DNA from: Candidatus Versatilivoraceae bacterium
GTDB lineage: Bacteria; Acidobacteriota; Terriglobia; Versatilivoradales; Versatilivoraceae
Assembly: GCA_965197895.1 (NCBI GenBank)
Contig: OZ240232.1
Location: 228,211 to 292,210 of the forward strand
Direction: 5' to 3'
Length of the DNA: 64,000 nucleotides
Positions 7,739-64,000 of the stretch are shown here, in pieces. The position numbers were made by a program, and so were the translations under genes. Within the stretch, counting starts at the first letter, position 1. Each line of letters starts with the position of its first letter. The notes beneath the pieces were generated by a model. That model was not told the origin of the DNA. It searched no databases and saw only the letters and a program-made list of their open reading frames with translations.

Positions 7739-7773
7739 TTGCAATCCACTACCATCCCCCATATAATTAGGGG
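7739..7773 (+). promoter_or_regulatory. sigma70-type promoter TTGCAA-17nt-TATAAT with the -10 box inside the palindrome CCCC-ATATAATTA-GGGG, abutting the integrase ATG (leaderless mRNA predicted)
   Basis: TTGCAA at 7739-7744, 17-nt spacer, TATAAT at 7762-7767, ATG at 7774. The same architecture recurs at 39825-39859 in front of integrase 2. Confidence 0.55.
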
Positions 7774-9006
7774 ATGATTAATGTAACCAAAACCACCCGC
7801 CTGCTACTTAAGACGAAACCCAAGGGCCGCCATCCCCCAAAGGCCCTCTCGGCTGCCTTCATCCGCTCCGCTCCGCCTGGAAGACACGCCGACGGGAACG
7901 GATTGTACCTCTTCGTCCAACCCAGCGGAACCCGCAGCTGGATTCAGCGCCTTCTCGTCCGCGGTCGCCGCCGTGAGCTCGGACTCGGAAGTGTTGCCCT
8001 CGTTCCATTGGCCGAAGCCCGGGAGAAGGCCCTCGCCAACCGCAAGCTCGCCCGCCAGGGCGGAGACCCGCTCGCCGAGAAGCGCCGTGCCGAAGGCATC
8101 CCCACTTTCGCCGAAGCCGCCATGCGTGTGCTGGAGCAGAAGCAGGGCGGATGGCGCGGGCAGCGTCACCCTCGCGAGTGGCTGTCGAGCCTGAGGCGGT
8201 TCGCCTTCCCTCGCATCGGCAAGGTGCCGGTCTCAGAGGTTACGAGCGCCGACGTGCTTGAGATCCTCACGCCCATCTGGCACCGGAAGATAGAGACGGC
8301 CCGGCGAGTGCGCCAGCGCCTGCGGGCGGTCCTGGAATGGGCGGTAGCGATGGAGTACCGCCTTGACAACCCCTGCGACCGGATCGGACCGGTGCTGGGT
8401 GCCCAACAGGACGTTACCGAGCACAGGCAGGCCGTGCCCCATCGGGAGGCGGGTGCGGTGATCCGTAGGGTGCGGGCATCGGCAGCGCCGCCGGGCGTCA
8501 AGTTGGCTCTTGAGTTCCTGGTGCTGACGGCAGCCAGGTGGGGCGAGGTGCGGTGGGCCGAGTGGGAGGAGATCGATCGCAGCGGGAGGGTGTGGACCGT
8601 CCCGGCCAGGCGGATGAAGACGAACCGCCGGCACCGGGTGCCGCTGTGTGGCCGCGCCCTGGAGATTCTCGACACTGCGGAGATACAGGAGGGGGGAGTC
8701 GGTCCACTGGTGTTCACCCATAGGGGCGGGAAGCCTCTCAATGACAGCGTGCTGCGCCGGCTGCTGCGGGAGCTTGGGATTGCGGCGGTGCCGCACGGTT
8801 TCCGCTCGACCTTCCGGGATTGGGCGGGTGAGGAAACGGATCATCCCCGGGAAGTGATCGAGGCGGCCTTGGCGCATGTGGTCCGGAACCGGGTGGAGGC
8901 GGCCTATGCCCGCTCGGACCTGTTCGAACGCCGGCGCACGTTGATGGACGAATGGGCGCGTTACCTGGCCCAAGGGTCGGGAGAGGATCTGGAGCCCGTG
9001 GGATAA
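7774..9006 (+). CDS. int: P4-type tyrosine integrase (DUF4102 arm-binding N-domain + phage-integrase catalytic domain)
   Basis: N-terminal GRHADGNGLYLFVQPSGTRSWIQR (Arm-DNA-binding), C-terminal HGFRSTFRDWAGEE...AHVVRNRVEAAYARSDLFERRR with the R..H..R..Y catalytic residues. ~85% identical to the 39860..41092 copy. Confidence 0.9.
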   Translation: MINVTKTTRLLLKTKPKGRHPPKALSAAFIRSAPPGRHADGNGLYLFVQPSGTRSWIQRLLVRGRRRELGLGSVALVPLAEAREKALANRKLARQGGDPLAEKRRAEGIPTFAEAAMRVLEQKQGGWRGQRHPREWLSSLRRFAFPRIGKVPVSEVTSADVLEILTPIWHRKIETARRVRQRLRAVLEWAVAMEYRLDNPCDRIGPVLGAQQDVTEHRQAVPHREAGAVIRRVRASAAPPGVKLALEFLVLTAARWGEVRWAEWEEIDRSGRVWTVPARRMKTNRRHRVPLCGRALEILDTAEIQEGGVGPLVFTHRGGKPLNDSVLRRLLRELGIAAVPHGFRSTFRDWAGEETDHPREVIEAALAHVVRNRVEAAYARSDLFERRRTLMDEWARYLAQGSGEDLEPVG

Positions 9007-10619: not shown

Positions 10620-11108
10620 TCATGGACAAGATCCTTTATTGTCCTGAGGATACCAATCGCGAATTTGTGCGTTATTTGTTACACGCATTTTCTGGAAGCA
10701 CTCCATCGCACGCGTGAGATTTTGGGTTAGCGAATAGTAGTTGTCGATTGCGCGTTCCAGCATGTCCTTCGCCTCCTCATTTGCATCAAATTCGACAGTC
10801 TTCGAATCGCCAGGAGACCAGTGCTTTAGCTTATTCCTTGCGTAGTTTGCTCGTTTGGCAACGTCCCTTTCACTGAGTTCCCCGTCATAAAGCTGCTTGT
10901 GGATTTCAGGGACATCTTTCTTGAGAGAGTCCAAAGAATTCTCAGACTTCTCAAGTTTGTTTTCCTTTAGAAGTTTCCCAAAGATCTCCTCTGAAGCGCC
11001 CGCCAATGTGATCACGGAATAGTAATCCTCTTGTTCGAAGTACAGGCGAAGGGCGGTTTCAAGTTGCCTAAGCGCCATACACTGCGGGTCATGAGCCATG
11101 AGGGTCAT
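10620..11108 (-). CDS. small alpha-helical protein with Rx4H (HEPN-like) motif
   Basis: Start at ATG 11108 (AAGGAG SD 6 nt upstream) gives MTLMAHDPQC..., 162 aa. Contains ...AKRANYARNKLKHW. Local GC is markedly lower than in flanking genes. Confidence 0.5.
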   Translation of the reverse strand: MTLMAHDPQCMALRQLETALRLYFEQEDYYSVITLAGASEEIFGKLLKENKLEKSENSLDSLKKDVPEIHKQLYDGELSERDVAKRANYARNKLKHWSPGDSKTVEFDANEEAKDMLERAIDNYYSLTQNLTRAMECFQKMRVTNNAQIRDWYPQDNKGSCP

Positions 11109-11205
11109 TACATCTCCTTCTATCCTGTGTTGCGTCGAGCGCCTTACGGGAATACTGTTCCCGGGGCCGCTTGAATGTACTTCATACTCATCCATCGCCC
11201 GCGTT

Positions 11206-13779
11206 TTATTTTACCGCTGCTAGGCGCCCTGCGATGTCCGCTAGCGCCAGAGATCGGTAATACGCGTTCTTGATATGCATGGCAATTGTCATCGCGTGCT
11301 TGAAGTCTCCTTCTTCCGCCTGCATCACGGCGATGTCCACCAAGGCACTGCTACCAAACCCGGCCTCTTCGACGCTGTGGGCATTTCGCACAGCAGCGGC
11401 TATGTCTCCAAATTTCGCCTGCTCTGTGATGAACTCCTCAATGTTGTTAGACACGCTGGCTCTGTCACCAAGTTCGTCGATTGCGCGGGCATGAGCAGCC
11501 TTGAGGGCGGAGGCGAATGTCTGGTTGGCTTGCGGCGCATGCCCTGCTTCCATTTGTGCGGTGGCGATCTCGCACAAGCTTTCGACGCGGGAATTGGCAG
11601 CGCCAATGCCACGGGCGGCTCGGAAGGCGGCCCCAAATGTTTGCATGGCTGCTGGACCATCCCCCGTTTTTGCCTGCACAGTGGCGATCTCGCGTAACGT
11701 CTCCGCGCAATGGACTCTGAACCAACCGGGACATAAGGCAGCCTGAGCGGTGGCGATCTGTAGTGCTTTCCAACTGTCTGGAGATGATGGATCCCACTGC
11801 CCTAAAATAGCCTCCAATTGTTCTGGAGTGGTGTCCTTCGGCGCTTCAGCTGTGAATTTCTTACTGCTTTTCTCGTGTGTGACTTCATATTTGCTCATCG
11901 GAATGCCGATGGGCTGAGCAAGCTCAAGAGCAGCGGCGATGTCTCCCGCTTTCGCCTGGGCCACAGCGATGTCCATCAAGGCCCAGCTACGGTCCCAAGC
12001 GTCATCAATGTCATAAGCGGCCTTTAGGGCAGTGGCGAGCATTGACTTGGCTGCTTGCTTGTCCCCGACTTCCCTCTGTGCATCGGCGATCTCGCACAAC
12101 GCTCGTACTCGATTTTCGGGCTGGCCTATTTCGTGGGCAATCTTGAGGGCCGTGGCGAATGTATGCCCAGATGCGAGTCTGTCTCCCAATTCCGCCTGCT
12201 TCTTGGCGATATCATCAAGCACCGTGGCCCGTTTTTGGGCAGACTCGATGGTGTGAGCAGCCTCTATGAAAAGAGCAATGTCATCTGTTGTTTTCGTGTG
12301 CTCAGCGACGAGTTGGTGAAGCATCTCAGGCCGAGAGGGGAAAAAGCCATAGTCGGAAAGATTGCGGGTAGTTGAGAGGGCAGCAGCTATATCTCCTGCC
12401 TCCGCTTGAATAGTAGCCATTTTCTCCAAGTAAGAGTCCCGACCCCAAGACGCGCTAGCTTCGATATCGTGAGCCTTCTCCAAGGCGAGAGCGGAATCAG
12501 CTGTTTGTCTGGCTGCTCGCAAATCTCGTGCTTCTGCCTGCCTTTCGGCAATCCCGTACAATGCGCCGACGCGTTTTTCAACATCGTCGATATCGCGAGC
12601 GGTCCGGAGCCCGCCGGCGATATCGCCTGCTTCTGCTTGCTCTATGGCGATATTGCTCAAGGTATAAGCGTGAGACCCTGCTCCGTCGATAGCAGCGGCA
12701 ATTGTTTGTCTGGCTGCTTGCAAATCTCCTGCTTCTACCTGCACCTTGGCAATCAATCGCAATGCCCCGACGCGCGTTAAGACATTGTGGATACCGTAAG
12801 CAGTCTGGAGGCCGCCAGCGATATCCCCTGCTTTGGCCTGGGCGGTGGCGATTCCGTGCAGGATTTCAGCGCGGACAGCGCGGAGTGTCCCGCCAATACT
12901 GCTGGCGGCCTTGATGGCGGCGGCGAATGATTGTTTGGCTACACTCAAGTCACCTGCTTCCGCTTGCGCTGTACCGATTTTCCGAAACACGACGGCGCGA
13001 GAAAGACTGTCGTTGATGCTGTTTACCCCATGCAATACAAGGCCTATAACGCACTCGTAGTTCGGGTTCTTCGGGCACTCATTGCGTCGCGTTGCTTCCA
13101 TGAGCTGTGATCGACCCTGGACCCGCAGTTCTTCGATCCACTCCGCCGGCAAGGCAAAGTTCAAACTCTCACCCCGCCACTTGAAGGTTGTGATTCCCAC
13201 CAGTTCGCCGGATTGATTGAAGAGCCCGCCGCCCGATGAACCCGGAGAGATGGCCGCATCCGTCTGCACCAGGGGCGCGGACCGCTTGCCGAAAGCGCCG
13301 CGCAGTTGCGATACGACCCCACGCGACAGCGACAGTTCCAGTCCCGCCGGAGCGCCCACCGCGTACACTTCCTCGCCTACCGACAACACCTTGGCTGCAC
13401 CCAGTCGGACTGCCTGAGCTGCCGGAGGCTCGGGCAACTGGTCCACGAACAGGAGACACAGATCGCGCTCGTCATTTCGCGCCAGCAAGTACGCGGGCAT
13501 CCGGTAGGTTTCTCGACCGGACCAATCAGCTGCCTGGCGCACCGCGACATCGGCCGCCTTACGAAGCACATGGCAATTGGTGACCACTTCGTAATCTCCC
13601 ACGACCACGCCGCTGCCTTGGCCTGTCGTCTTGCCTTGCTCATCCAACGCCAACACGACAACCACCGAGGGAGCTACTTTGGTAAAGACATCCTTGGCAG
13701 AGGCTCCCCAAGCACTAGCTGGCAAGGTCAGAACCGCCCACGCAATGACGGCGGCGCGGAGAATGAGCGTCACTTTCAT
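11206..13779 (-). CDS. secreted trypsin-like (S1/Trypsin_2) serine protease fused to ~13 HEAT/PBS-lyase-like repeats
   Basis: Signal peptide MKVTLILRAAVIAWAVLTLPASAWG. Catalytic His in VVTNCHVL, Asp in ERDLCLL and Ser in AISPGSSGGGLF. Followed by ~650 aa of degenerate repeats centred on I-A-x-A-Q-A-E-A-G-D-I-A. The internal DNA repeats generate many spurious opposite-strand ORFs. Confidence 0.75.
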   Translation of the reverse strand: MKVTLILRAAVIAWAVLTLPASAWGASAKDVFTKVAPSVVVVLALDEQGKTTGQGSGVVVGDYEVVTNCHVLRKAADVAVRQAADWSGRETYRMPAYLLARNDERDLCLLFVDQLPEPPAAQAVRLGAAKVLSVGEEVYAVGAPAGLELSLSRGVVSQLRGAFGKRSAPLVQTDAAISPGSSGGGLFNQSGELVGITTFKWRGESLNFALPAEWIEELRVQGRSQLMEATRRNECPKNPNYECVIGLVLHGVNSINDSLSRAVVFRKIGTAQAEAGDLSVAKQSFAAAIKAASSIGGTLRAVRAEILHGIATAQAKAGDIAGGLQTAYGIHNVLTRVGALRLIAKVQVEAGDLQAARQTIAAAIDGAGSHAYTLSNIAIEQAEAGDIAGGLRTARDIDDVEKRVGALYGIAERQAEARDLRAARQTADSALALEKAHDIEASASWGRDSYLEKMATIQAEAGDIAAALSTTRNLSDYGFFPSRPEMLHQLVAEHTKTTDDIALFIEAAHTIESAQKRATVLDDIAKKQAELGDRLASGHTFATALKIAHEIGQPENRVRALCEIADAQREVGDKQAAKSMLATALKAAYDIDDAWDRSWALMDIAVAQAKAGDIAAALELAQPIGIPMSKYEVTHEKSSKKFTAEAPKDTTPEQLEAILGQWDPSSPDSWKALQIATAQAALCPGWFRVHCAETLREIATVQAKTGDGPAAMQTFGAAFRAARGIGAANSRVESLCEIATAQMEAGHAPQANQTFASALKAAHARAIDELGDRASVSNNIEEFITEQAKFGDIAAAVRNAHSVEEAGFGSSALVDIAVMQAEEGDFKHAMTIAMHIKNAYYRSLALADIAGRLAAVK

Positions 13780-55839: not shown

Positions 55840-56323
55840 TCTTGTTTAGCTCCAGGAAGCGCCAAGCGATAGCCGCCGAAATGCACAGGCCCGTCATGCG
55901 TTCCTCATGGTTTCCGCGGTCACCTATCCGCCCTCGAACGGCGCCACCGTCGGCCCTCGGGCCTCTAAAGATCAAATCGATCCATGTTACATTCTGTTGC
56001 ACTCCGTCACACTCTGTCGGCATTGGGGAATGCCTCTCAAGTTCGATAACTCGTTGTTACAGAAGAATTATCGTAGACTCACAGCCCCGATTCTGCTGAA
56101 CTCCGTGAGGTATTCGAATTGGACACCCTTTCCCGTTCCTTCGGTCCGGGCCTCCGACCTATTCGCCGACCCACCTTCGGGCTGCGCGCCCGCCTTCGCT
56201 CCTCTTACAGGTAGACGGACAGGCGACTACCCCGGTTTCTTGGCAACGCTATGCTGCTTGAAGACCGAAAGCGGTTCGGAGATACCTCAGGGGATAGGTC
56301 GGTATCAGGGCAAAAGCCGATAG

Positions 56324-56587
56324 GTGACGGTCGAGCGGCCGCTGCGGCTCGCCGTCGATCTGTCTCCGGAACGCCGCGCGTGGTTCCGCGGTGCCTGCGG
56401 CGAAGGGCTGCCCTACGCCCCCGATGCCTGGTACGACCCGGCCAGGGTCAAGACCGGCTACGAGATCAGCTTCACCCGCTACTTCTACCAGTCCCGGCCG
56501 CTGCGCACGTTGGAAGAAATCCGGGTCGACATCCTGGCGCTGGAGCAGGAGACCGAAGGGCTGCTGGATGAAATTATCGGCGGGTAG
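56324..56587 (+). pseudogene. hsdM: type I R-M HsdM C-terminal remnant (last ~70 aa only)
   Basis: VKTGYEISFTRYFYQSRPLRTLEEIRVDILALEQETEGLL is the conserved HsdM C-terminus. No N6_Mtase core lies upstream. Confidence 0.7.
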
Positions 56588-56741
56588 CGTGGGGGTGCTG
56601 TTATTAAATGCAGCCTTTAGTAAGTGCGAATTTCTCTTCCATATTAAACTCAACCTTTACCAAAGCTGTAACGATGCTCTATAGTAAACACAGCCTTTAA
56701 TATGAGCCTTCTAAGTGGCCATACGAAAGCGCCAGTTTACT

Positions 56742-57920
56742 ATGGAAGACCGTTCTCCAACCTCAATCCGAGCAGGGCGATACATCACGCAGCCAGCCGG
56801 CTACAGGACTTTCCTTCCGGCGCCGTTGCCGCCCGACCCGCCCGTCCGGATCACCGGGGGAATACAAGAGCTGCTCTCTCAGGCCGCCCTCGCACTCGGG
56901 CGTCTCGACGGGTCAATCCAAACGCTGCCCAATCCGGATCTGTTCGTTTACATGTACGTCCGCAAAGAGGCGGTGCTATCGAGCCAGATTGAAGGGACGC
57001 AGAGCTCGTTGCAGGATCTGCTAGCGGCTGAAGCGAAGATATTCGCGCCGAATCGAGCGAACGACGTAAACGAAGTGGCGAACTATGTCAAAGCCATGAA
57101 TCACGGGCTGAGAAGGCTGTCTGAGCTACCCGTTTCGGTCCGACTGATCCGCGAAATCCATACAAAACTCCTCCAAGACGTGCGGGGCTCTCATCTCACC
57201 CCCGGCGGGTTGCGAACCAGCCAGAACTGGATCGGACCTGCTGGCTGCACGCTCAGGGAGGCCCTCTTTGTCCCGCCTCAACCCCATCAGGTCGTGCAGG
57301 ATATGTCGCAATTGGAACGGTTTATCCGCGTCGACAAAGGACTGCCTCTATTGATCAAAATCGGATTGGTACACGCCCAATTTGAGACGATCCACCCCTT
57401 CCTGGATGGCAATGGTCGCGTCGGGAGGTTGCTTATCACCTTTCTGCTTTGCGAGCAGGGAGTGTTGCGAAAGCCGGTTCTCTACCTGTCCCATTTCTTC
57501 AAGCAGCACCGACAACAATATTACGAAGAACTGCAATCGGTGCGCGACGCCGGAACCTGGGAACGGTGGCTCACCTTCTTTCTGCGCGGCATTGTGGAGG
57601 TGAGCGGACAGGCTACCGACACGGCACGGCGGATACTCGCTCTCCGCGAAGAGCATCGTCGTATGATCAACGAAAACTTCGGCCGCGCCGTCGGCAACGG
57701 TCACCGCACGCTGGAATATCTCTACGAACACCCGATCGTATCGGTGGGCGACGTGCAGGGTTTAACTGGAACGACGTACCCGGCAGCGAACAATCTGGTC
57801 GCGCGGATGGTCGATAGCCGCATCCTGCACGAGTTTACCGGACAGGCACGCAACCGGGGATTCATGTATCAGAGCTACATTGAACTGTTCCACGAGACTG
57901 GGCCCGAGGCTGACCTCTGA
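56742..57920 (+). CDS. Fic/DOC family protein
   Basis: HPFLDGNGRVGRLL Fic motif. ATG 56742; the track start at 56715 is GTG. Confidence 0.85.
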   Translation: MEDRSPTSIRAGRYITQPAGYRTFLPAPLPPDPPVRITGGIQELLSQAALALGRLDGSIQTLPNPDLFVYMYVRKEAVLSSQIEGTQSSLQDLLAAEAKIFAPNRANDVNEVANYVKAMNHGLRRLSELPVSVRLIREIHTKLLQDVRGSHLTPGGLRTSQNWIGPAGCTLREALFVPPQPHQVVQDMSQLERFIRVDKGLPLLIKIGLVHAQFETIHPFLDGNGRVGRLLITFLLCEQGVLRKPVLYLSHFFKQHRQQYYEELQSVRDAGTWERWLTFFLRGIVEVSGQATDTARRILALREEHRRMINENFGRAVGNGHRTLEYLYEHPIVSVGDVQGLTGTTYPAANNLVARMVDSRILHEFTGQARNRGFMYQSYIELFHETGPEADL

Positions 57921-58109: not shown

Positions 58110-58384
58110 AGTCCAGGCTCATTATTGCCAAGGTGACAGCACAGACATCTCCACTGAGCACTACCATTGACCGTGCCCGTCACCAAATCGAGTTGTTGCG
58201 CGAATACCGCGCCCGCCTGATCGCCGATGTGGTCACCGGCAAGCTGGACATGCGCGAGGCGGCGGCACGGCTGTCTGACGAAACCGAGGCATCTCAACCG
58301 ATGGACAGGTCAGACGCCCTGCCCACTCTCGAAGAAGACGTGATGACTAGCCTCGACTCGATCACTGAAAGCACCGAATCATGA
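58110..58384 (+). pseudogene. hsdS: HsdS 3'-terminal fragment (conserved C-terminal helix only)
   Basis: AKVTAQTSPLSTTIDRARHQIELLREYRARLIADVVTGKLD is ~95% identical at the DNA level over ~150 bp to 61197-61340 in the longer hsdS. Confidence 0.7.
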
Positions 58385-59277
58385 CGAATCACCGGGACCA
58401 CGATTACCTTCTCGGCTTGGTGCGCGAATTGCGCAACTTGCCGTATGAGACTGAATGGGTTGAGTTCAAGGTCAACTACTGGAAACCGCACGCCATCGGA
58501 GAGTATATCTCGGCACTGGCCAACGCCGCGGCTCTCCATGCCAAGATCCACGCATACATGCTCTGGGGGATTGAGAACGGAACGCATGACGTCGTCGGCA
58601 CGGACTTTTCGCCGGACACCGAGAAGAAGGGCAACGAGCCGCTTGAAACGTGGCTGCTGCAACTTCTGAATCCTCGCATTGACTTCCGCTTTCACGAGGT
58701 AACGGCCAGCGGACGGCGCGTCGTGCTCTTGGAGATCGACCGCGCGTCTCAGCACCCGGTCACATTCGAAGGCGTTGAGTACATCCGAGTGGGCGGCACC
58801 ACCAGAAAGCTCAAGGACTATCCCGAGAAGGAACGGGCACTCTGGCGTGTGTTTGACCGGGTGGGCTTCGAAGACGGAATCGCCGCCGAACGGGTGAGCG
58901 ACGAGGATGTTCGGCTCTGCGAGGAGCGCGGCAGCGGGATCGACAAGGTTGTTTTCGAGGTAGAACTTTACCAGTTGCCTGCACCGCTTTTTGAAGCGCC
59001 GGAAGGTTTCACGCGCACCGTCTTGTTCGCACATAGGGCTCTGGCCGACATGGACACAGCGGATCGGGTGCGGGCCTGTTACCTGCACGCCTGCCTGAAA
59101 TACGTGACGCGAGCTTTCCTGACCAACGCATCTCTAAGGGAACGGTTCGGCAACAAGGAGAAAAATAGGGCAGTCGTGTCGCGCTACATCCGAGAGGCGG
59201 TGGACGGAGGTATGATCAAGCCATTTGACGAACATGCCAGCAGGAGGATGATGAAATACGTTTCTTTTTGGGCTTGA
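58381..59277 (+). CDS. AlbA_2 (Schlafen-like divergent AAA) domain protein, putative DNA-binding regulator
   Basis: ETEWVEFKVNYWKPHAIGEYISALANAAALHAKIHAYMLWGIENGTHDVVGT matches the AlbA_2 N-domain. Its ATG overlaps the hsdS-fragment stop (ATGA). Confidence 0.65.
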   Translation: MTNHRDHDYLLGLVRELRNLPYETEWVEFKVNYWKPHAIGEYISALANAAALHAKIHAYMLWGIENGTHDVVGTDFSPDTEKKGNEPLETWLLQLLNPRIDFRFHEVTASGRRVVLLEIDRASQHPVTFEGVEYIRVGGTTRKLKDYPEKERALWRVFDRVGFEDGIAAERVSDEDVRLCEERGSGIDKVVFEVELYQLPAPLFEAPEGFTRTVLFAHRALADMDTADRVRACYLHACLKYVTRAFLTNASLRERFGNKEKNRAVVSRYIREAVDGGMIKPFDEHASRRMMKYVSFWA

Positions 59278-59547: not shown

Positions 59548-59835
59548 ATGAAAAATATCACCGTATCTGTGGACGAAGAGACCTATCGGCTGTCCCGCGT
59601 CAAGGCGGCGGAACGGGGCACTTCGGTTTCGGCGTTGGTACGTGGCTACCTCAAAACCCTCATCCGCGAGCAAGCCGACGGGCCTAGGGCCAGTGAACAA
59701 GGCATAGAGACCGAGTCCGAACGGCGCCGGCTGTTGAACGAGGTGCTTGCGGACTTTGATGCGCGAGGCGTGGGATTGCGTATGGCTGACAATCTCCCCC
59801 GTGAAGCCCTGTACGACCGCGATGCGCTTCGTTGA
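59548..59835 (+). CDS. vapB: ribbon-helix-helix VapB-like antitoxin
   Basis: ATG 59548 gives MKNITVSVDEETYRLSRVKAAERGTSVSALVRGYL, an RHH fold. Overlaps the downstream PIN gene by 14 bp. Confidence 0.7.
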   Translation: MKNITVSVDEETYRLSRVKAAERGTSVSALVRGYLKTLIREQADGPRASEQGIETESERRRLLNEVLADFDARGVGLRMADNLPREALYDRDALR

Positions 59836-60313
59836 TACCAACGTGTTGCTCTATGCAGTAAGCGTTTTGCCGGAGGATGCCAACAAGCGCCGCCGCGCAC
59901 GCACGCTGCTGACCGAGGCTGACCTTGCGGTATCGGTGCAGGTCCTGCAGGAGTTCTACTATCAGGCGACGCGCCCAAGCCGCTCGGCGCCGCTGACGCA
60001 CGCCGACGCTTTGCTGTTTATGGAACCAATCATGAGCTTCCATGTACAGGCCGTCACACTCGAGGTGTTCCGCGCCGCGCTTTCAATCCGCCAACGCTTC
60101 GGGTTGTCCTATTGGGATAGCGCGATCCTGGCCGCCGCTGAGCTTCAGTGCGATGCTGCAGGCAGCCACCCTGTGGGCGGGAACAGCATCGGCCAAGCCG
60201 AAGGAGAGCCATGGCGCCATTCCCGGTTGATCCAAGTCGGGGAGATGGCCGAGGCTGTGCCGGGCTCTGTGCGGGCGGGACGCCCGCGCTCCCAGGAAGC
60301 CGTCATCCCATGA
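59822..60313 (+). CDS. vapC: PIN-domain VapC-like toxin
   Basis: MRFVDTNVLLYAV...DLAVSVQVLQEFYY...GLSYWDSAILAAA supplies the PIN acidic residues. The C-terminal ~40 aa are atypical, so a possible frameshift. Confidence 0.7.
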   Translation: MRFVDTNVLLYAVSVLPEDANKRRRARTLLTEADLAVSVQVLQEFYYQATRPSRSAPLTHADALLFMEPIMSFHVQAVTLEVFRAALSIRQRFGLSYWDSAILAAAELQCDAAGSHPVGGNSIGQAEGEPWRHSRLIQVGEMAEAVPGSVRAGRPRSQEAVIP

Positions 60314-60328
60314 CATCACTTTTCTGAC

Positions 60329-61411
60329 GTGCACCCGATCTTCAATGTAATTTCTGGCAAGGCTGGTATCGTGGATGCCAAAATGCCAGAGTTTGTCTTC
60401 AGTAACTTCTTATTGCGAGTTGTTGCACACGGTCGTGTTGTGAGCCCGCGCTACCTTTTTCTATTGCTTAGTGGCCACCTCACCCGCGAGCGTGTCAAAC
60501 GCATGGTTACAGGATCAACTTACCCCAATCTGCGAGTCGACGAATACACCTCCGCTCTCTTACCGATTCCACCCCTCTCTGAGCAAGCTGCCATTGTCCG
60601 TTACCTCGACCACGTGGACCGGCGGATTCAGCGCTACCTCAACGGCAAGCAAAAGCTCATCCGGTTGCTGGACGAACAGAATCAGGCCGTCATCCACCGC
60701 GCCGTCACCCGGGGCCTCGACCCCAACGTCCGCCTCAAGCCCTCCGGCGTCGAATGGCTGGGCGATGTGCCTGCGCATTGGGGAATTTCTCGGACAAAGA
60801 ATGAATTCCATTGCTGGAATCACCGGCGCGTGCCATTGAGTGCCAGCGAAAGAGGATTGATGAGCGTACGTCGATACGATTACTATGGAGCATCTGGCAC
60901 CGTAGACAAGGTTGAAGACTAACTGTTCGATAGCGAACTACTGCTTATCGCTGAGGATGGGGCAAATCTTATCCTCCGTAACTTACCACTGGCAATTATC
61001 GTTCGCGGGAAATTCTGGGTGAATAACCACGCACATGTCTTGAAACCGAAAAGAGGGAATCTCGAATATCTCGCGGCAGTTATGGAAAGGCTAAACTACA
61101 CCCCCTGGATTTCAGGTACTGCACAACCGAAGCTCACCCTAGACAGATTGATGAACATTGCCATCGCAGTGCCACCGAGAGCAGAACAAGATGACATTAT
61201 TGCCAAGGTGACAGCACAGACATCTCCACTGAGCACTACCATTGACCGTTCCCGTCACCAAATCGAGTTGTTGCGCGAATACCGCACCCGTTTGATCGCC
61301 GACGTGGTCACCGGCAAGCTGGACGTGCGCGCGGCGGCGGCGTTTACGGAGGAAGCTGAGGGAGACCCGGAACTTTATGATGAAGCCGAAAGGCCGGAAC
61401 CGCTTGACTAA
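60329..61411 (+). pseudogene. hsdS: type I R-M HsdS, 5'-truncated and carrying an in-frame TAA in the conserved DYLF motif
   Basis: The two track ORFs 60329..60922 and 61019..61411 are in the same frame. The sequence reads ...GTVDKVED-TAA-LFDSELLLIAEDGANL...KFWVNNHAHVL, where HsdS has Tyr at the stop position. The N-terminal TRD is only ~90 aa. Confidence 0.75.
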
Positions 61412-61443: not shown

Positions 61444-62550
61444 ATGAGAAACAAGCTTCATGCAATAACGCTCAAGGGATTCAAGACCATTCAAGAGCTG
61501 GATGACTTCAAGCCTGGCTCCTTAACGGTACTCATTGGACCCAATGGCGCGGGCAAGTCCAACTTCATTTCTTTCTTTCGTATGATGAGTTGGATGCTGG
61601 CAGACCCAGACAATCTTCAATTTCACGTGGCGCAACATGGTGGAGCCAGCAAACTTTTGCACGACGGCTCGGACAGGACCCATGAGATTGAAGCCGAGTT
61701 AACGATTCGGACCGACGCCGGCGAGAACCAATATGCGTTCCGGCTGTTTTATGCAGCCGGGGATAGGTTGATTTTCGCTGATGAGCGTTACCGTTTTTCT
61801 CGCGATGATTACGACGGCATTGCACCTTGGCGAGAAACGGGTGCCGGGCACCGCGCTCCGCAACTCCTTGACAAGGCATCCGAGGACGATACTGCTCGCT
61901 TCATTCGAAACGTCCTAAGGAAAATAGTTTTATACCAATTTCACAACACGTCGGCCACAGCCCGCATCCGGAGCAAGTGGAGCGTGAACGACAACCGTTA
62001 CCTGAAGGAAGATGCGGCCAATATCGCTCCGCTCCTGCTTCGCCTCAGGGAGGAAGACGGCAGGTGTTACCAGCGGATTGTAGATACCGTCCGCCTGATC
62101 CTACCCTTCTTCTCGGATTTTGAACTGGAACCTGAGAACGGTCATCTGCTGCTTGCCTGGCGTGAACGAGACAGTGACCAGGTGTTCGATGTTTCGCAGG
62201 CGTCGGACGGCATGTTGCGGGTCATAGCGCTCGTCATGCTTCTCCTTCAACCGGAAGAGAACTTGCCGGACGTTTTGATTCTGGACGAGCCGGAGCTTGG
62301 ACTCCATCCCTACGCCATTACTGTGGTCGGTGGCCTGATACGGGCCGTGTCCACAAAGGTCCAGGTCATTGTCGCCACTCAGTCCACGGCGTTCGTCGAC
62401 TGCTTCGAGCCTGAGGACATCGTCGTTGTCGAGCGTGAAGGTCGAAAATCCATATTCCGACGGCTGGGTACCGAGGCTCTGGCAGAGTGGCTCAAAGACT
62501 ATACGCTTTCCGAGTTGTGGGAAAAGAACGTACTCGGGGGGCGACCGTAG
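61444..62550 (+). CDS. AAA_21/ABC-type ATPase (SMC-like, OLD/AbiL-type)
   Basis: Walker A GPNGAGKSNF. C-terminal LILDEPELGLHP (Walker B/D-loop) and VIVATQS. Confidence 0.85.
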   Translation: MRNKLHAITLKGFKTIQELDDFKPGSLTVLIGPNGAGKSNFISFFRMMSWMLADPDNLQFHVAQHGGASKLLHDGSDRTHEIEAELTIRTDAGENQYAFRLFYAAGDRLIFADERYRFSRDDYDGIAPWRETGAGHRAPQLLDKASEDDTARFIRNVLRKIVLYQFHNTSATARIRSKWSVNDNRYLKEDAANIAPLLLRLREEDGRCYQRIVDTVRLILPFFSDFELEPENGHLLLAWRERDSDQVFDVSQASDGMLRVIALVMLLLQPEENLPDVLILDEPELGLHPYAITVVGGLIRAVSTKVQVIVATQSTAFVDCFEPEDIVVVEREGRKSIFRRLGTEALAEWLKDYTLSELWEKNVLGGRP

Positions 62551-63227
62551 TGGCCGTAAGGTTACATTTCATCGTTGAAGGACAGACCGAAGAGACTTTC
62601 GTAAATCGGGCCTTGCGCCCACACTTGGCGAATCTGTCCATCTGGGTTAGAGCCCGGTGTGTGATGACGAGTCGTAGGCGCGGCGTCAGGCATCGCGGAG
62701 GTATCGGGAATTATGCGCAAGCGAAGAGAGACATCAATGCTTGGATGATGGAGGACCAGAACCCAGACGCACGCTTCACAACCATGTTTGATTTGTACGG
62801 GCTGCCGGCAGACTTTCCAAGTTACGAGAATGCTGTGAGAGTAAGCAATCCGTATGACCGCGTCAGGGCTTTGGAGCACGCCTTGAAGGAAGACATTTCT
62901 GATCCGCGATTCATTCCTTATCTTCAGCTTTACGAATTCGAGGCGCTATTGTTGTCCGATCCTCAGAAACTCGACTCGCAGTTTTACGATCATGGTGTCG
63001 GGATACAGAAACTTGTGGAGATAGCTTCTGGCTTCGAATCACCGGAGCACATCAATGACGGAATCAACACCGCCCCGTCGAAGCGAATTACTGATGCCAT
63101 ACCGGAATATGAAAGAATGAAGGCGTCCGCGGGTCCCATTGTGGCTGAGAAGATCGGATTGCCCACTCTGCGATTGCAATGTGAGCATTTCGGAGAATGG
63201 ATTGGTCAATTGGAGCGTCTGGGCTGA
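62550..63227 (+). CDS. DUF4276 family protein
   Basis: GTG at 62550 overlaps the ATPase TAG stop (taGTG). LHFIVEGQTEETFVNRAL...TTMFDLYGLPADFP matches the DUF4276 N-terminus. Confidence 0.8.
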   Translation: MAVRLHFIVEGQTEETFVNRALRPHLANLSIWVRARCVMTSRRRGVRHRGGIGNYAQAKRDINAWMMEDQNPDARFTTMFDLYGLPADFPSYENAVRVSNPYDRVRALEHALKEDISDPRFIPYLQLYEFEALLLSDPQKLDSQFYDHGVGIQKLVEIASGFESPEHINDGINTAPSKRITDAIPEYERMKASAGPIVAEKIGLPTLRLQCEHFGEWIGQLERLG

Positions 63228-63302: not shown

Positions 63303-64000
63303 GAGAGTCTTCGACTGAGGTGGTTCCGCTTTTTAGACAGCTGAACGGCAATTTTAAGGTGTATTCCTCAGTTGTGAGAATCTGCCGTTGGGGGACAGTA
63401 TAGCAGCAGTTGGGGGCGCTGGCGGAGGGAGGGCGGAGCCCGACCGGAGCCGGGGTCCGGTATGTCTCTTACCGACTTTCCCCTCTACCTTAAGCGGCCC
63501 GTAGCGCTTCTTTCGGCGTTCCCCCGCCCAGCGCCGAGTGAGGCCGCCTCCGGTTGTAAAACTCCAGCCATTCCCCGATCATCCGTTCGGCCTGGAATCC
63601 GTCCTCCGGTTCGGCCAAGTACACCGACTCGTACTTCAACGAGCGCCACAACCGCTCGATGAAGAGGTTGTCCATCCAGCGTCCCCGCCCGTCCATCGAC
63701 ACCTGTACGCCCATCTCCAGCAGGCGCCCCGTGAAGGCCTCGCTCGTCAACTGGCTGCCCTGGTCCGTGTTGAAGATCTCCGGCTTGCCGTAGCCCCCCA
63801 ACGCTGACTCCAACGCACTCACGCAGAACCCGCTGTCGAGCCTGTTCGACAGCTGCCACGCCAGCCCACAGCGGCTCGCCCAGTCCATCACTACCACCAG
63901 ATAGAGATACCCCCGCCTCATCGGAATGTAGGTGATGTCAGCACACCAGACCTGGTGGGGCCGTCTGATCTCCAGTCCCCTCAGCAGGTAGGGGTAGATC
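63303..64000 (-). mobile_element. IS3-family element, right part (continues beyond the window)
   Basis: OrfB DDE/rve domain 63490..64000 (DQGSQLTSEAF...YNRRRPHSALGGGTP). The terminal region 63303-63489 begins TGAGGTGG. Confidence 0.8.
63490..64000 (-). CDS. IS3-family transposase OrfB (integrase-core DDE), 5' part outside window
   Basis: rve-domain motifs; the ORF is open at 64000. Confidence 0.85.
   Translation of the reverse strand, partial: IYPYLLRGLEIRRPHQVWCADITYIPMRRGYLYLVVVMDWASRCGLAWQLSNRLDSGFCVSALESALGGYGKPEIFNTDQGSQLTSEAFTGRLLEMGVQVSMDGRGRWMDNLFIERLWRSLKYESVYLAEPEDGFQAERMIGEWLEFYNRRRPHSALGGGTPKEALRAA

Follow-up and report, generated by a model that had tools for sequence, protein, structure and literature searches.

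The 64,000-nt stretch of DNA analysed here (the window), from Candidatus Versatilivoraceae bacterium, carries near its end an ATPase gene followed immediately by a gene for a DUF4276 protein, with remains of a Type I restriction-modification (R-M) system on one side and an insertion sequence on the other. The locus raises the question of what kind of module the two genes form, and whether it could still act in phage defence after the system around it has decayed. We found that the pair is an intact copy of HEC-01, a widespread two-gene candidate anti-phage module already catalogued in PADLOC, and that it is an ordinary member of this known family. The pair and its junction have the following features.

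61444-62550, plus strand: HEC-01A, a 368-aa ABC (SMC/Rad50-head type) ATPase with an ATG start (ORF, Pfam, PADLOC)
62534-62539, plus strand: GGGGGG run, a Shine-Dalgarno-like candidate within the Gly-Gly codons conserved in the ATPase tail and 11-16 nt ahead of the GTG
62548-62552, plus strand: stop/start overlap TAGTG (...CGA CCG TAG TGG CC...)
62550-63227, plus strand: HEC-01B, a DUF4276 protein of 225 aa that combines a Toprim-like core and a helical domain, GTG start (Pfam, PADLOC, predicted fold)

The initial annotation, made from the sequence alone, had proposed an AAA_21 ATPase and DUF4276 pair as a phage-defence candidate to be classified with defence-finding tools. Both ORFs are present and both Pfam domains were recovered: AAA_21 in the ATPase at E 5.9e-29, and DUF4276 in the second protein at E 2.2e-55 with the full profile covered, the only Pfam family there at E<=0.01. 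These E-values are far beyond chance. The PADLOC profile PDLC04175 (HEC-01A) matches the ATPase at E 9.2e-132 (residues 1-368 against profile positions 1-362 of 363) and PDLC04188 (HEC-01B) matches the DUF4276 protein at E 2.2e-77 (residues 3-224, full length), and with the literature these matches bear out the proposal. HEC-01, or Hma-embedded candidate 01, was published as an ‘embedded’ defence candidate whose description includes a conserved metal site (Payne et al., bioRxiv 10.1101/2024.01.29.577857). Our pair shares with it full-length matches to both models, an ABC-type rather than AAA+ ATPase followed by a Toprim-like protein, adjacent genes on the same strand with a 1-nt overlap, and embedding in multi-gene defence operons; the host system here is a decayed Type I R-M system and not Hma, and nothing structural differs. 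In the original test, protection against any phage was not seen (bioRxiv 10.1101/2024.01.29.577857), while one HEC-01 gave Escherichia coli B protection from one or more of the phages T4, T5 and T7 (PMC12881386). The anti-phage support for HEC-01 comes from one representative in one paper (PMC12881386), and the published activity data conflict. Standard defence-finding software would call the pair HEC-01 and, the family having thousands of members, little is gained from the locus as annotation.

The AbiL-type label first given to the pair had to be corrected to HEC-01, with MADS Mad3-Mad4 as relatives. AbiLii belongs to the RloB family (PF13707), whereas the second protein here matches DUF4276 and HEC-01B and no AbiLii or RloB model; the AbiLi model matches the ATPase weakly, its E of 1.1e-19 being some 110 orders of magnitude poorer than that of HEC-01A. 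What the pair has in common with AbiL and RloA-RloB is an ATPase with a Toprim-superfamily partner, and RloAB are embedded in the same way, as restriction-linked ORFs of Type I R-M loci. There is also a likeness to MADS, the methylation-associated defence system of Pseudomonas aeruginosa, in which Mad3 and Mad4, needed for MADS defence, are likewise an AAA_21-type ABC ATPase and a DUF4276-family Toprim protein in a methylation-based defence operon; the PADLOC mad3 model matches our ATPase at E 2.8e-30. Membership in MADS was rejected, as the ATPase scores 96.3 bits with NCBIfam MAD3 against a cutoff of 420. In addition, no mad4 model is among the matches listed for the second protein, and neither another mad gene beside the pair nor a MADS-like operon was recognised among the Pfam-annotated neighbours at 54-64 kb. 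PARIS was rejected because AriB is a DUF4435 protein and the second protein here a DUF4276 protein. AriA (53-55 kDa) is also larger than the 368-aa ATPase, and PARIS is often phage- or satellite-borne, whereas the family here had no match in phage genomes among 50,697 phage records.

The Walker A motif GPNGAGKS (G32-S39, nt 61537-61560) and the SMC-like motif VLILDEPELGLHP (residues 277-289, from nt 62272), both noted at the outset, read as described; the Walker B motif is V277-E282 (nt 62272-62289). A signature-like motif lies at Q252-A-S-D-G256, and the C-terminal tail ELWEKNVLGGRP is conserved. At the H-loop position (T312-Q313-S314, nt 62377-62385) Gln takes the place of His, so ATP hydrolysis may be slow. 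In structure comparison, the predicted ATPase model resembles the SMC head, Rad50, PtuA and AriA.

For the second gene, a mechanical ORF list offers an alternative upstream GTG at 62487; the start at 62550 is supported because homologues of 224-230 aa begin M-A-V/I-R-L-H-F-I-V-E-G, and most relatives have ATG at the equivalent position. A Toprim/OLD-like nuclease fold had been suggested for DUF4276, and the proposal for the pair had been made to hang on it. By two methods, the best structural match of the predicted HEC-01B model is the Toprim-plus-helical C-terminal region of BpOLD and XccOLD, both class 2 OLD proteins. Sequence similarity of HEC-01B to OLD is undetectable: PDB sequence and profile searches with the protein returned chance matches only (mitoribosomal uS14 and a GroEL-like protein, for example), so the relationship is visible at the fold level only. 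Residue conservation was read from an alignment of 140 diverse representatives, throughout which the acidic residues E10 (nt 62577-79), E14, D81 (nt 62790-92), E129 and E131 (nt 62934-42) are invariant. The other residues classed as family-invariant are G50-G51, Y83, E166, P176-S177, R179 and K191. Compared by sequence position, the series Glu...Glu (i, i+4), Asp, Glu-x-Glu is analogous to E400/E404, D455 and T506/E508 of OLD, and the E10/E14 spacing equals that of E400/E404 of BpOLD (PMC6755086). The canonical Toprim Glu is represented by E10, whereas the second Asp of the DxD motif is replaced (D81-L-Y83; 94% of 141 sequences have Tyr here), and catalysis may for this reason not be that of OLD. 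OLD and Gabija GajA share the ABC-type ATPase with our pair. They were rejected as its class, since their ATPase and Toprim domains form one polypeptide, whereas here, as in all relatives, two ORFs are split by a stop. No UvrD/PcrA-like helicase of the class 2 OLD/GajB type lies beside the pair, which is followed by an IS3 element and then sulfatase genes, and the related loci have no helicase cluster other than HsdR.

An overlap of the DUF4276 GTG with the ATPase TAG (taGTG) had also been pointed out correctly: the G of the stop (62548-62550) is the first base of the GTG at 62550. Among 79 related loci, 33 have a 1-nt overlap (TAATG/TGATG/TAGTG) and 35 a 4-nt overlap (ATGA/GTGA/TTGA), 68 in total, which suggests that translation of the pair is coupled. 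The GGGGGG run before the junction may act on the second gene in the manner of a Shine-Dalgarno sequence; most related loci have GG(R)P codons ahead of the junction. No convincing plus-strand promoter or terminator for the pair was found in a scan with sigma-70 and terminator consensus sequences that may not be the host's.

By analogy with known systems, the reading that we favour, with a probability of roughly 0.7, is that the locus encodes an intact HEC-01-type module in which an SMC/Rad50-head-like ABC ATPase and a Toprim-plus-helical nuclease, made with coupled translation, act through an OLD/Gabija/PARIS-like defence mechanism. HEC-01A and HEC-01B would be produced from one transcript, and an ATPase oligomer would bind the nuclease and act as sensor and switch. 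A phage cue would then lead to ATP binding or hydrolysis that activates or releases the nuclease, which would cut nucleic acid in a metal-dependent manner, with E10/D81 as site A and E14/E129/E131 as site B. DNA has a slight edge as the substrate, given that a class 2 OLD DNA nuclease is the best structural match; tRNA, as in PARIS, may be the target instead. Complex formation, trigger and substrate are what we infer, as are expression and activity of this copy after the R-M decay.

A proposal of this kind would lose its footing if the two genes did not occur together elsewhere, as the initial annotation had recognised, and they are linked in all 80 related loci. Across many phyla, the DUF4276 gene directly follows the ATPase gene or its remnant; the arrangement is adjacent and co-oriented in 79 loci, and the 80th keeps an ATPase remnant. 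Beyond these two, no gene is conserved across the neighbourhoods of the related loci. Compared with eight relatives, both genes have dN/dS values of 0.09-0.30, which shows long-term purifying selection, not necessarily selection since the R-M decay. The distribution is patchy, and identity between copies in taxonomically different MAGs reaches 85-95%, which indicates horizontal transfer of the pair; the family was also found on 13 plasmids. IS elements or frameshifts have repeatedly inactivated the pair in some genomes, and in four loci (L079, L033, L028 and L061) the ATPase gene is disrupted while the DUF4276 gene is apparently intact. DUF4276 copies beside disrupted ATPase genes may be silent.

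Such a patchy distribution with horizontal transfer and plasmid carriage could also belong to a selfish addiction module resembling toxin-antitoxin systems, with the ATPase holding a nuclease toxin in check and the pair mainly stabilising itself and its island rather than defending against phages. The pair has indeed stayed intact while adjoining R-M genes decayed and IS elements accumulated, and the Pfam AAA_21 label mentions a TA system. We regard this as improbable, since toxicity is without support, the ATPase gene is disrupted in the four loci above, which an essential antitoxin would not allow unless their DUF4276 copies are silent, and the published data favour phage defence (PMC12881386). 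The ‘AbiEii toxin, Type IV TA’ wording of the Pfam AAA_21 description was taken as a family-name artefact and not as evidence.

The sporadic phylogenetic distribution and clear horizontal transfer, together with repeated embedding in R-M and BREX operons, repeated inactivation by IS or frameshift in some genomes and the reported anti-phage activity (PMC12881386), make it very improbable that the pair has a housekeeping role in DNA metabolism (repair, chromosome or cell cycle) instead of one in immunity, as some archaeal OLD-family ATPases do. That role would suit the SMC and Rad50 heads as best structural matches of the ATPase, the synteny of the pair with peptidase genes in Latescibacterota, the lack of matches in the 50,697 phage records, and a cell-cycle role reported for an archaeal OLD-family ATPase (PMC12796447).

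The favoured reading has to accommodate the state of the surroundings, described initially as an R-M/TA islet bounded by an IS3. The islet is real and the IS3 was identified, but the R-M part of the description applies to a decayed Type I system. The islet contains the following features.

56324-56587, plus strand: hsdM remnant, an 87-aa stub (tblastn with HsdM of loci L003 and L023)
56715-57920, plus strand: Fic-domain protein, SoFic single-gene defence model (Pfam Fic_N and Fic; PADLOC SoFic E 1.2e-117)
58133-58384, plus strand: orphan 3' fragment of hsdS (tblastn to HsdS C-termini)
58381-59277, plus strand: SLFN/AlbA_2-domain protein (Pfam SLFN_AlbA_2 1.3e-19)
59548-60313, plus strand: ribbon-helix-helix and PIN (VapBC-like) toxin-antitoxin pair (weak Pfam RHH matches, PIN 6.8e-11; gene calls of locus L002)
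60329-61411, plus strand: hsdS pseudogene (both halves match Pfam Methylase_S; tblastn aligns it without a break to HsdS residues 135-492)
63316-64000, minus strand: IS3-family insertion sequence running past the window end (rve and rve_3 domains, terminal inverted repeat, gene calls)

Only C-terminal segments of hsdM survive, matching residues ~545-571 and 695-755 of a 763-aa relative, and no Pfam domain is left in the stub. The hsdS pseudogene lacks approximately the first 130 codons and is interrupted by an in-frame stop at 60920-60922, between VDKVED and LFDSELL, and HsdR queries from L003, L023 and L027 detected no hsdR similarity across the window and a further 10 kb. Judged by its sequence, with hsdM a stub, hsdS truncated and carrying a nonsense codon, and hsdR absent, the Type I R-M system here is not functional. 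The stop of the hsdS 3' fragment overlaps the start of the AlbA_2 gene by 4 nt, and no PADLOC model matches the SLFN/AlbA_2 protein (58381-59277). The stretch at 55.9-56.3 kb, upstream of the hsdM stub, is ORF-poor, and no non-coding RNA came up at 50-64 kb when the region was scanned with Rfam and for tRNAs. The IS3 starts 89 nt downstream of the pair and occupies the place of hsdR in relatives. Its integrase-core ORF is on the minus strand at 63490-64000, and its terminal inverted repeat (TGAGGTGGTTCCGCTTTTT / AAAAACCGGCACCACCTCA in L002) starts at window position 63316. As seen in L002, the full element of 1356 bp is equivalent to window positions 63316-64671, beyond the window end, and the L002 gene calls place the sulfatase genes after it.

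The sister contig L001 has an additional transposase inside hsdS and differs from the window by a C>T at 62859 that changes R104 of HEC-01B to Cys, at a position that is always R in close relatives and either R or K across the family; the remaining two differences are synonymous. This HEC-01B change and extra transposase, the truncated, interrupted or absent hsdM, hsdS and hsdR, the nearby IS3 and the lack of a promoter-like site matching the sigma-70 consensus, which may not be the host's, would all suit a non-functional relic decaying with the rest of the islet. Such a fate for this copy is extremely unlikely, given that both ORFs are full length against the profiles with every conserved motif intact, that the other two L001 differences are silent, and that dN/dS relative to other copies, reflecting long-term selection, is low at 0.09-0.30.

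Embedding of the pair in defence operons is recurrent in related loci, with Type I R-M genes nearby in 12 and BREX genes in 5 (about a fifth of the 80). The pair lies between hsdS and hsdR in six loci (L003, L023, L027, L033, L006 and L081) and immediately ahead of pglZ in four (L047, L049, L067 and L082), and the hsdS stop overlaps the ATPase start in L003, L023 and L008. About three quarters of the 80 loci gave no sign of R-M or BREX genes within 7 kb, by a detection of limited sensitivity. The PrrC and RloC anticodon nucleases have a comparable position: an ABC-type ATPase-containing effector between hsdS and hsdR that is held in check by the R-M complex. Set side by side by description, PrrC differs in being a single polypeptide with another nuclease domain.

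These placements and overlaps, and the decay of the R-M system in the window itself, raise the alternative that the pair is non-autonomous, an accessory nuclease effector or guard of Type I R-M, BREX or MADS. It might cut unmodified DNA for these systems or fire when phage anti-restriction disables them, as in PrrC or PARIS, and would then be orphaned and inert here. In MADS, mad5 can be deleted only if mad2 or mad3 is deleted as well, and deletions of mad3 or mad4 lower defence, both of which fit such a dependence. We consider it unlikely, because the detection of limited sensitivity showed neither R-M nor BREX genes within 7 kb in most of the 80 loci, a HEC-01 of just the two genes reportedly sufficed to protect E. 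coli B (PMC12881386), and this copy has kept both ORFs intact and every conserved residue although R-M was lost.

We also put forward, tentatively and with considerable doubt, that HEC-01 is a PARIS/PrrC-like back-up which monitors methylation-based immunity and can persist autonomously once its host system is gone, as it would have done in this window. An ATPase that senses phage anti-restriction proteins, or the state of the R-M or BREX complex, would then explain why the pair was recruited between hsdS and hsdR or ahead of pglZ. If so, the Gln at the H-loop would mark a slow-switch ATPase, and the D-x-Y Toprim variant a non-canonical nuclease chemistry. Together with its relatives, the locus is a record of a probable and conserved coupling of translation, of the obligate linkage of the two genes and of their repeated insertion between hsdS and hsdR or ahead of pglZ, and any well-behaved HEC-01 homologue could serve for the biochemistry of trigger, substrate and stoichiometry. 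The survival of this pair through the decay of its host R-M system bears on the autonomy of embedded modules.

The ATPase and DUF4276 genes lie in an islet with the following features.

56324-56587: hsdM remnant, C-terminal segments only
56715-57920: Fic protein gene of the SoFic type, directly after the hsdM stub (PADLOC SoFic, E 1.2e-117)
58133-58384: hsdS 3' fragment
58381-59277: AlbA_2/Schlafen-domain gene, its start overlapping the end of the orphan hsdS fragment by 4 nt
60329-61411: main hsdS, lacking about 130 N-terminal codons and carrying an in-frame stop at 60920-60922
61444-62550, forward strand: ATPase gene, ATG start, 368 codons (from the ORF listing)
62550-63227, forward strand: DUF4276 gene, GTG start (from the ORF listing and homologue starts)
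63316 onward: IS3-family element of 1356 bp, its inverted repeat beginning 89 nt past the DUF4276 stop

At the junction of the two genes (CGA CCG TAG TGG CC), the TAG stop and the GTG start have base 62550 in common, confirming the overlap reported in the initial annotation. An alternative upstream GTG at 62487 was among the mechanical ORF candidates for the DUF4276 gene; we set the start at 62550 because the lengths (224-230 aa) and N-termini (MAV/IRLHFIVEGQTEE) of several thousand homologues agree with it. The ATPase matches Pfam AAA_21 (E 5.9e-29) and the second protein matches Pfam DUF4276 over its full length (E 2.2e-55). These domain labels had been proposed earlier and hold, as do the ATPase motifs, Walker A GPNGAGKS at residues 32-39 and VLILDEPELGLHP at residues 277-289.

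PADLOC classification, suggested at the outset as a check, identifies the ATPase, over its whole length, as HEC-01A (E 9.2e-132) and the second protein as HEC-01B (E 2.2e-77). Matches of the ATPase to other PADLOC models are far weaker (mad3, E 3e-30; the generic AriA/AAA_21 model, E 3e-28; AbiLi, E 1e-19; Old, E 1e-14), and no PADLOC model except those of HEC-01B matched the second protein. Judged by these sequence models, the pair is a textbook HEC-01 member; it is already known in kind, and standard tools would detect such a pair. Payne et al. count HEC-01 among their 'Hma-embedded candidates' and describe it as combining an ABC ATPase with a TOPRIM protein whose metal-binding site is that of BpOLD (bioRxiv 10.1101/2024.01.29.577857). 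DUF4276 has independently been assigned to the Toprim superfamily, with a homologue being Mad4 of MADS (PMC12065111), and the PARIS paper names AbiL (RloB) and MADS3-4 (DUF4276) as other systems that pair an ABC ATPase with a TOPRIM protein (PMC11464382). By analogy, the pair may work like OLD, Gabija, PARIS, AbiL and MADS3-4. Identity with each was rejected: the pair has no fused polypeptide, canonical DxD motif or helicase partner (OLD/Gabija), no DUF4435 AriB (PARIS) and no RloB AbiLii (AbiL), and the ATPase scores 96 bits against the NCBIfam MAD3 equivalog, below its cutoff of 420 (MADS). The initial reading of an ATPase/DUF4276 defense candidate therefore stands without its AbiL-type label, since the second protein matches HEC-01B/DUF4276 and not RloB AbiLii; that reading also left the decay of the R-M genes unstated.

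A scan for relatives, using one genome per species, found 547, and the best 80 of the 547 loci were analyzed. These are distributed among Acidobacteriota, Latescibacterota, Chloroflexota, Planctomycetota, Desulfobacterota, Bacteroidota, cyanobacteria and other groups. The expected co-occurrence in other genomes was found: an ATPase homologue ends at the DUF4276 start in 79 of these best 80 loci, with a stop/start overlap of 1 nt in 33 of the 79 and 4 nt in 35, and in the 80th (L079) the ATPase has been removed by an IS, its last residues (...YSLSELWEKNVIGARPV, then the stop) still being there. All-against-all clustering of about 1100 neighboring ORFs left only the ATPase and DUF4276 common across loci, and comparison of the window with eight relatives gave dN/dS values of 0.09-0.18 (ATPase) and 0.15-0.30 (DUF4276). 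Constant linkage, overlap, the absence of other shared genes and low dN/dS thus point to a self-contained, horizontally mobile and selectively maintained two-gene cassette. Readings of the pair as an addiction module, as a gene set with a housekeeping role or as a decaying relic are less likely. The family is found on 13 plasmids and has no match in 50,697 phage records.

The ATPase is damaged in several genomes, by IS truncation (L079), an insertion split (L033) or interruption (L028, L054 and L061); the DUF4276 ORF persists in all five, so occasional decay begins with the ATPase. The ATPase is better conserved than DUF4276 in close relatives (95% versus 85% in L004), and the order is reversed in distant ones (36-41% versus 52-54% in L053, L069 and L047), which suggests that the ATPases fall into distinct sub-clades, perhaps with different sensors, and that the nuclease paired with them is more uniform. 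In locus L008, the region directly after the HEC-01 pair (10715-12594) encodes a second, divergent AAA_21-type ATPase of 419 aa, which matches HEC-01A models at about 1e-40, and then an overlapping 224-aa ORF that no PADLOC model matched. Additional ATPase-like ORFs are present in L006, L040 and L081.

Rad50 is among the several ABC ATPases that best match the ATPase model (pLDDT 84.7), and the protein is therefore predicted to be an SMC-head-type ABC ATPase without the coiled coil. Invariant in the family are Walker A, a Q-x-S-D-G signature-like motif, Walker B (D281-E282) and the tail ELWEKN..GGRP. In addition, the H-loop position has an invariant Gln in place of the usual His (T312-Q313-S314, window 62377-62385; 58 of 58 aligned family members), which may slow ATP hydrolysis; the second ATPase of L008 has the usual THS there. 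At the junctions of L003-L082, as in the window (62514-62547), the tail ELWEKNxxGGRP is near-invariant. The Gly-Gly codons of this tail give a run of G-rich sequence that lies 11-16 nt upstream of the DUF4276 start, and the conservation of the tail may partly reflect a putative dual-coding ribosome-binding site.

The AlphaFold2 model of DUF4276, built from 30 homologues (pLDDT 87, pTM 0.84), places a helical domain after a beta-alpha core. Its top Foldseek match is the C-terminal region of Xanthomonas OLD (6njv, E 3.5e-3, probability 0.97), supporting at model level the Toprim/OLD-like fold proposed initially. Among 140 representatives of 50%-identity clusters (the family comprises 4274 such clusters), the non-varying residues are E10, E14, G50-G51, D81, Y83, E129, E131, E166, P176-S177, R179 and K191, with E10 ending strand 1 within V-E-G and D81 ending strand 3. 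The BpOLD catalytic set is E400, E404, D455/D457, T506/E508 and K562 (PMC6755086). Judged by sequence position and predicted secondary structure, three features would fit the BpOLD pattern: the spacing of E10 and E14, an Asp following strand 3, and an E-x-E that opens the first post-core helix. In contrast to the second DxD aspartate of BpOLD (D457), the DUF4276 family has a conserved tyrosine, giving D-x-Y (D81-L82-Y83, window 62790-62798; Tyr in 94% of 141 sequences); the Menshen paper reported DxD for the DUF4276 domains of that system (PMC12065111). Mildly new, at family level and not found described in the literature read, are the H-loop Gln and the D-x-Y motif, along with the conserved tail overlapping the possible ribosome-binding site and the example of an embedded module surviving beyond its host system.

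For the pair, the scheme of the wider ABC-ATPase/Toprim group is the best-supported model: by analogy, the ATPase assembly would bind the nuclease and couple infection detection to its activation, and the activated nuclease would cut nucleic acid by two-metal-ion catalysis. Going by the fold match, the nuclease is more likely OLD-like and directed at DNA; tRNA, the target in PARIS, may be an alternative substrate. Experimental support for HEC-01 defense is thin and mixed: HEC-01 gave E. coli MG1655 no protection when challenged with the BASEL set (bioRxiv 10.1101/2024.01.29.577857), and in E. coli B a single HEC-01 of cold-seep origin was protective against at least one of the phages T4, T5 and T7 (PMC12881386).

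Neighbors were counted with profile searches built from neighbor clusters, their identities checked with Pfam. Type I R-M genes are present in 12 of the 80 loci, usually in the order hsdM ... hsdS-ATPase-DUF4276-hsdR (L003, L023, L027, L033, L006 and L081), and BREX genes in 5, with the pair immediately upstream of pglZ in L047, L049, L067 and L082. By rough estimate, such embedding is far above expectation for a random gene, and it agrees with the published 'embedded' description (bioRxiv 10.1101/2024.01.29.577857). This pattern would suit the rival reading of a pair that depends on, or guards, R-M or BREX, as would MADS, in which deletion of mad3 or mad4 weakens defense and mad5 is deletable only together with mad2 or mad3; the MADS results hint that ATPase/DUF4276 pairs can serve methylation-based systems as their effectors. 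Against such dependence, most of the 80 loci have no such neighbor, and the window pair is intact without a working host R-M. No similarity to hsdR was found in the window or 10 kb beyond, and the R-M around the pair is a wreck. The initially described R-M/TA islet is present insofar as R-M genes and an RHH-PIN pair between their fragments occur, but the R-M is decayed (hsdM stub, hsdS stop, no hsdR). The IS3-family element does bound the pair, as annotated, and occupies the place of hsdR in relatives.

A 50%-identical Fic gene follows hsdM in the matching position in L006. No PADLOC model matched the AlbA_2/Schlafen-domain gene, a possible further embedded candidate; its coupled position is that of the ATPase after hsdS in L003, L023 and L008. 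A direct repeat of 147 nt (58120-58266 and 61195-61341, 95% identical) corresponds in both copies to the conserved hsdS 3' end, the first followed by the AlbA_2 gene and the second by the ATPase/DUF4276 pair, which suggests that recombination at the hsdS terminus has exchanged cargo or produced a mosaic. The roughly 480 nt (55840-56320) that separate a small divergent ORF from the hsdM stub are ORF-poor, with no Rfam family or tRNA, and presumably represent degraded hsdM or the island boundary.

The identical ATPase sequence occurs on two metagenome contigs (5.5 Mb and 197 kb). In one of them, the sister contig L001, an ISAZ013-type transposase (7767-9005) lies inside the hsdS pseudogene, corresponding to about 60.3-60.9 kb of the window; the window and contig L002 lack it, and therefore the islet is polymorphic in the population and still eroding. 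L001 differs from the window at three bases in the pair, two of them synonymous in the ATPase; the third (C>T at 62859) changes R104 of DUF4276, invariant among close relatives and R or K family-wide, to Cys.
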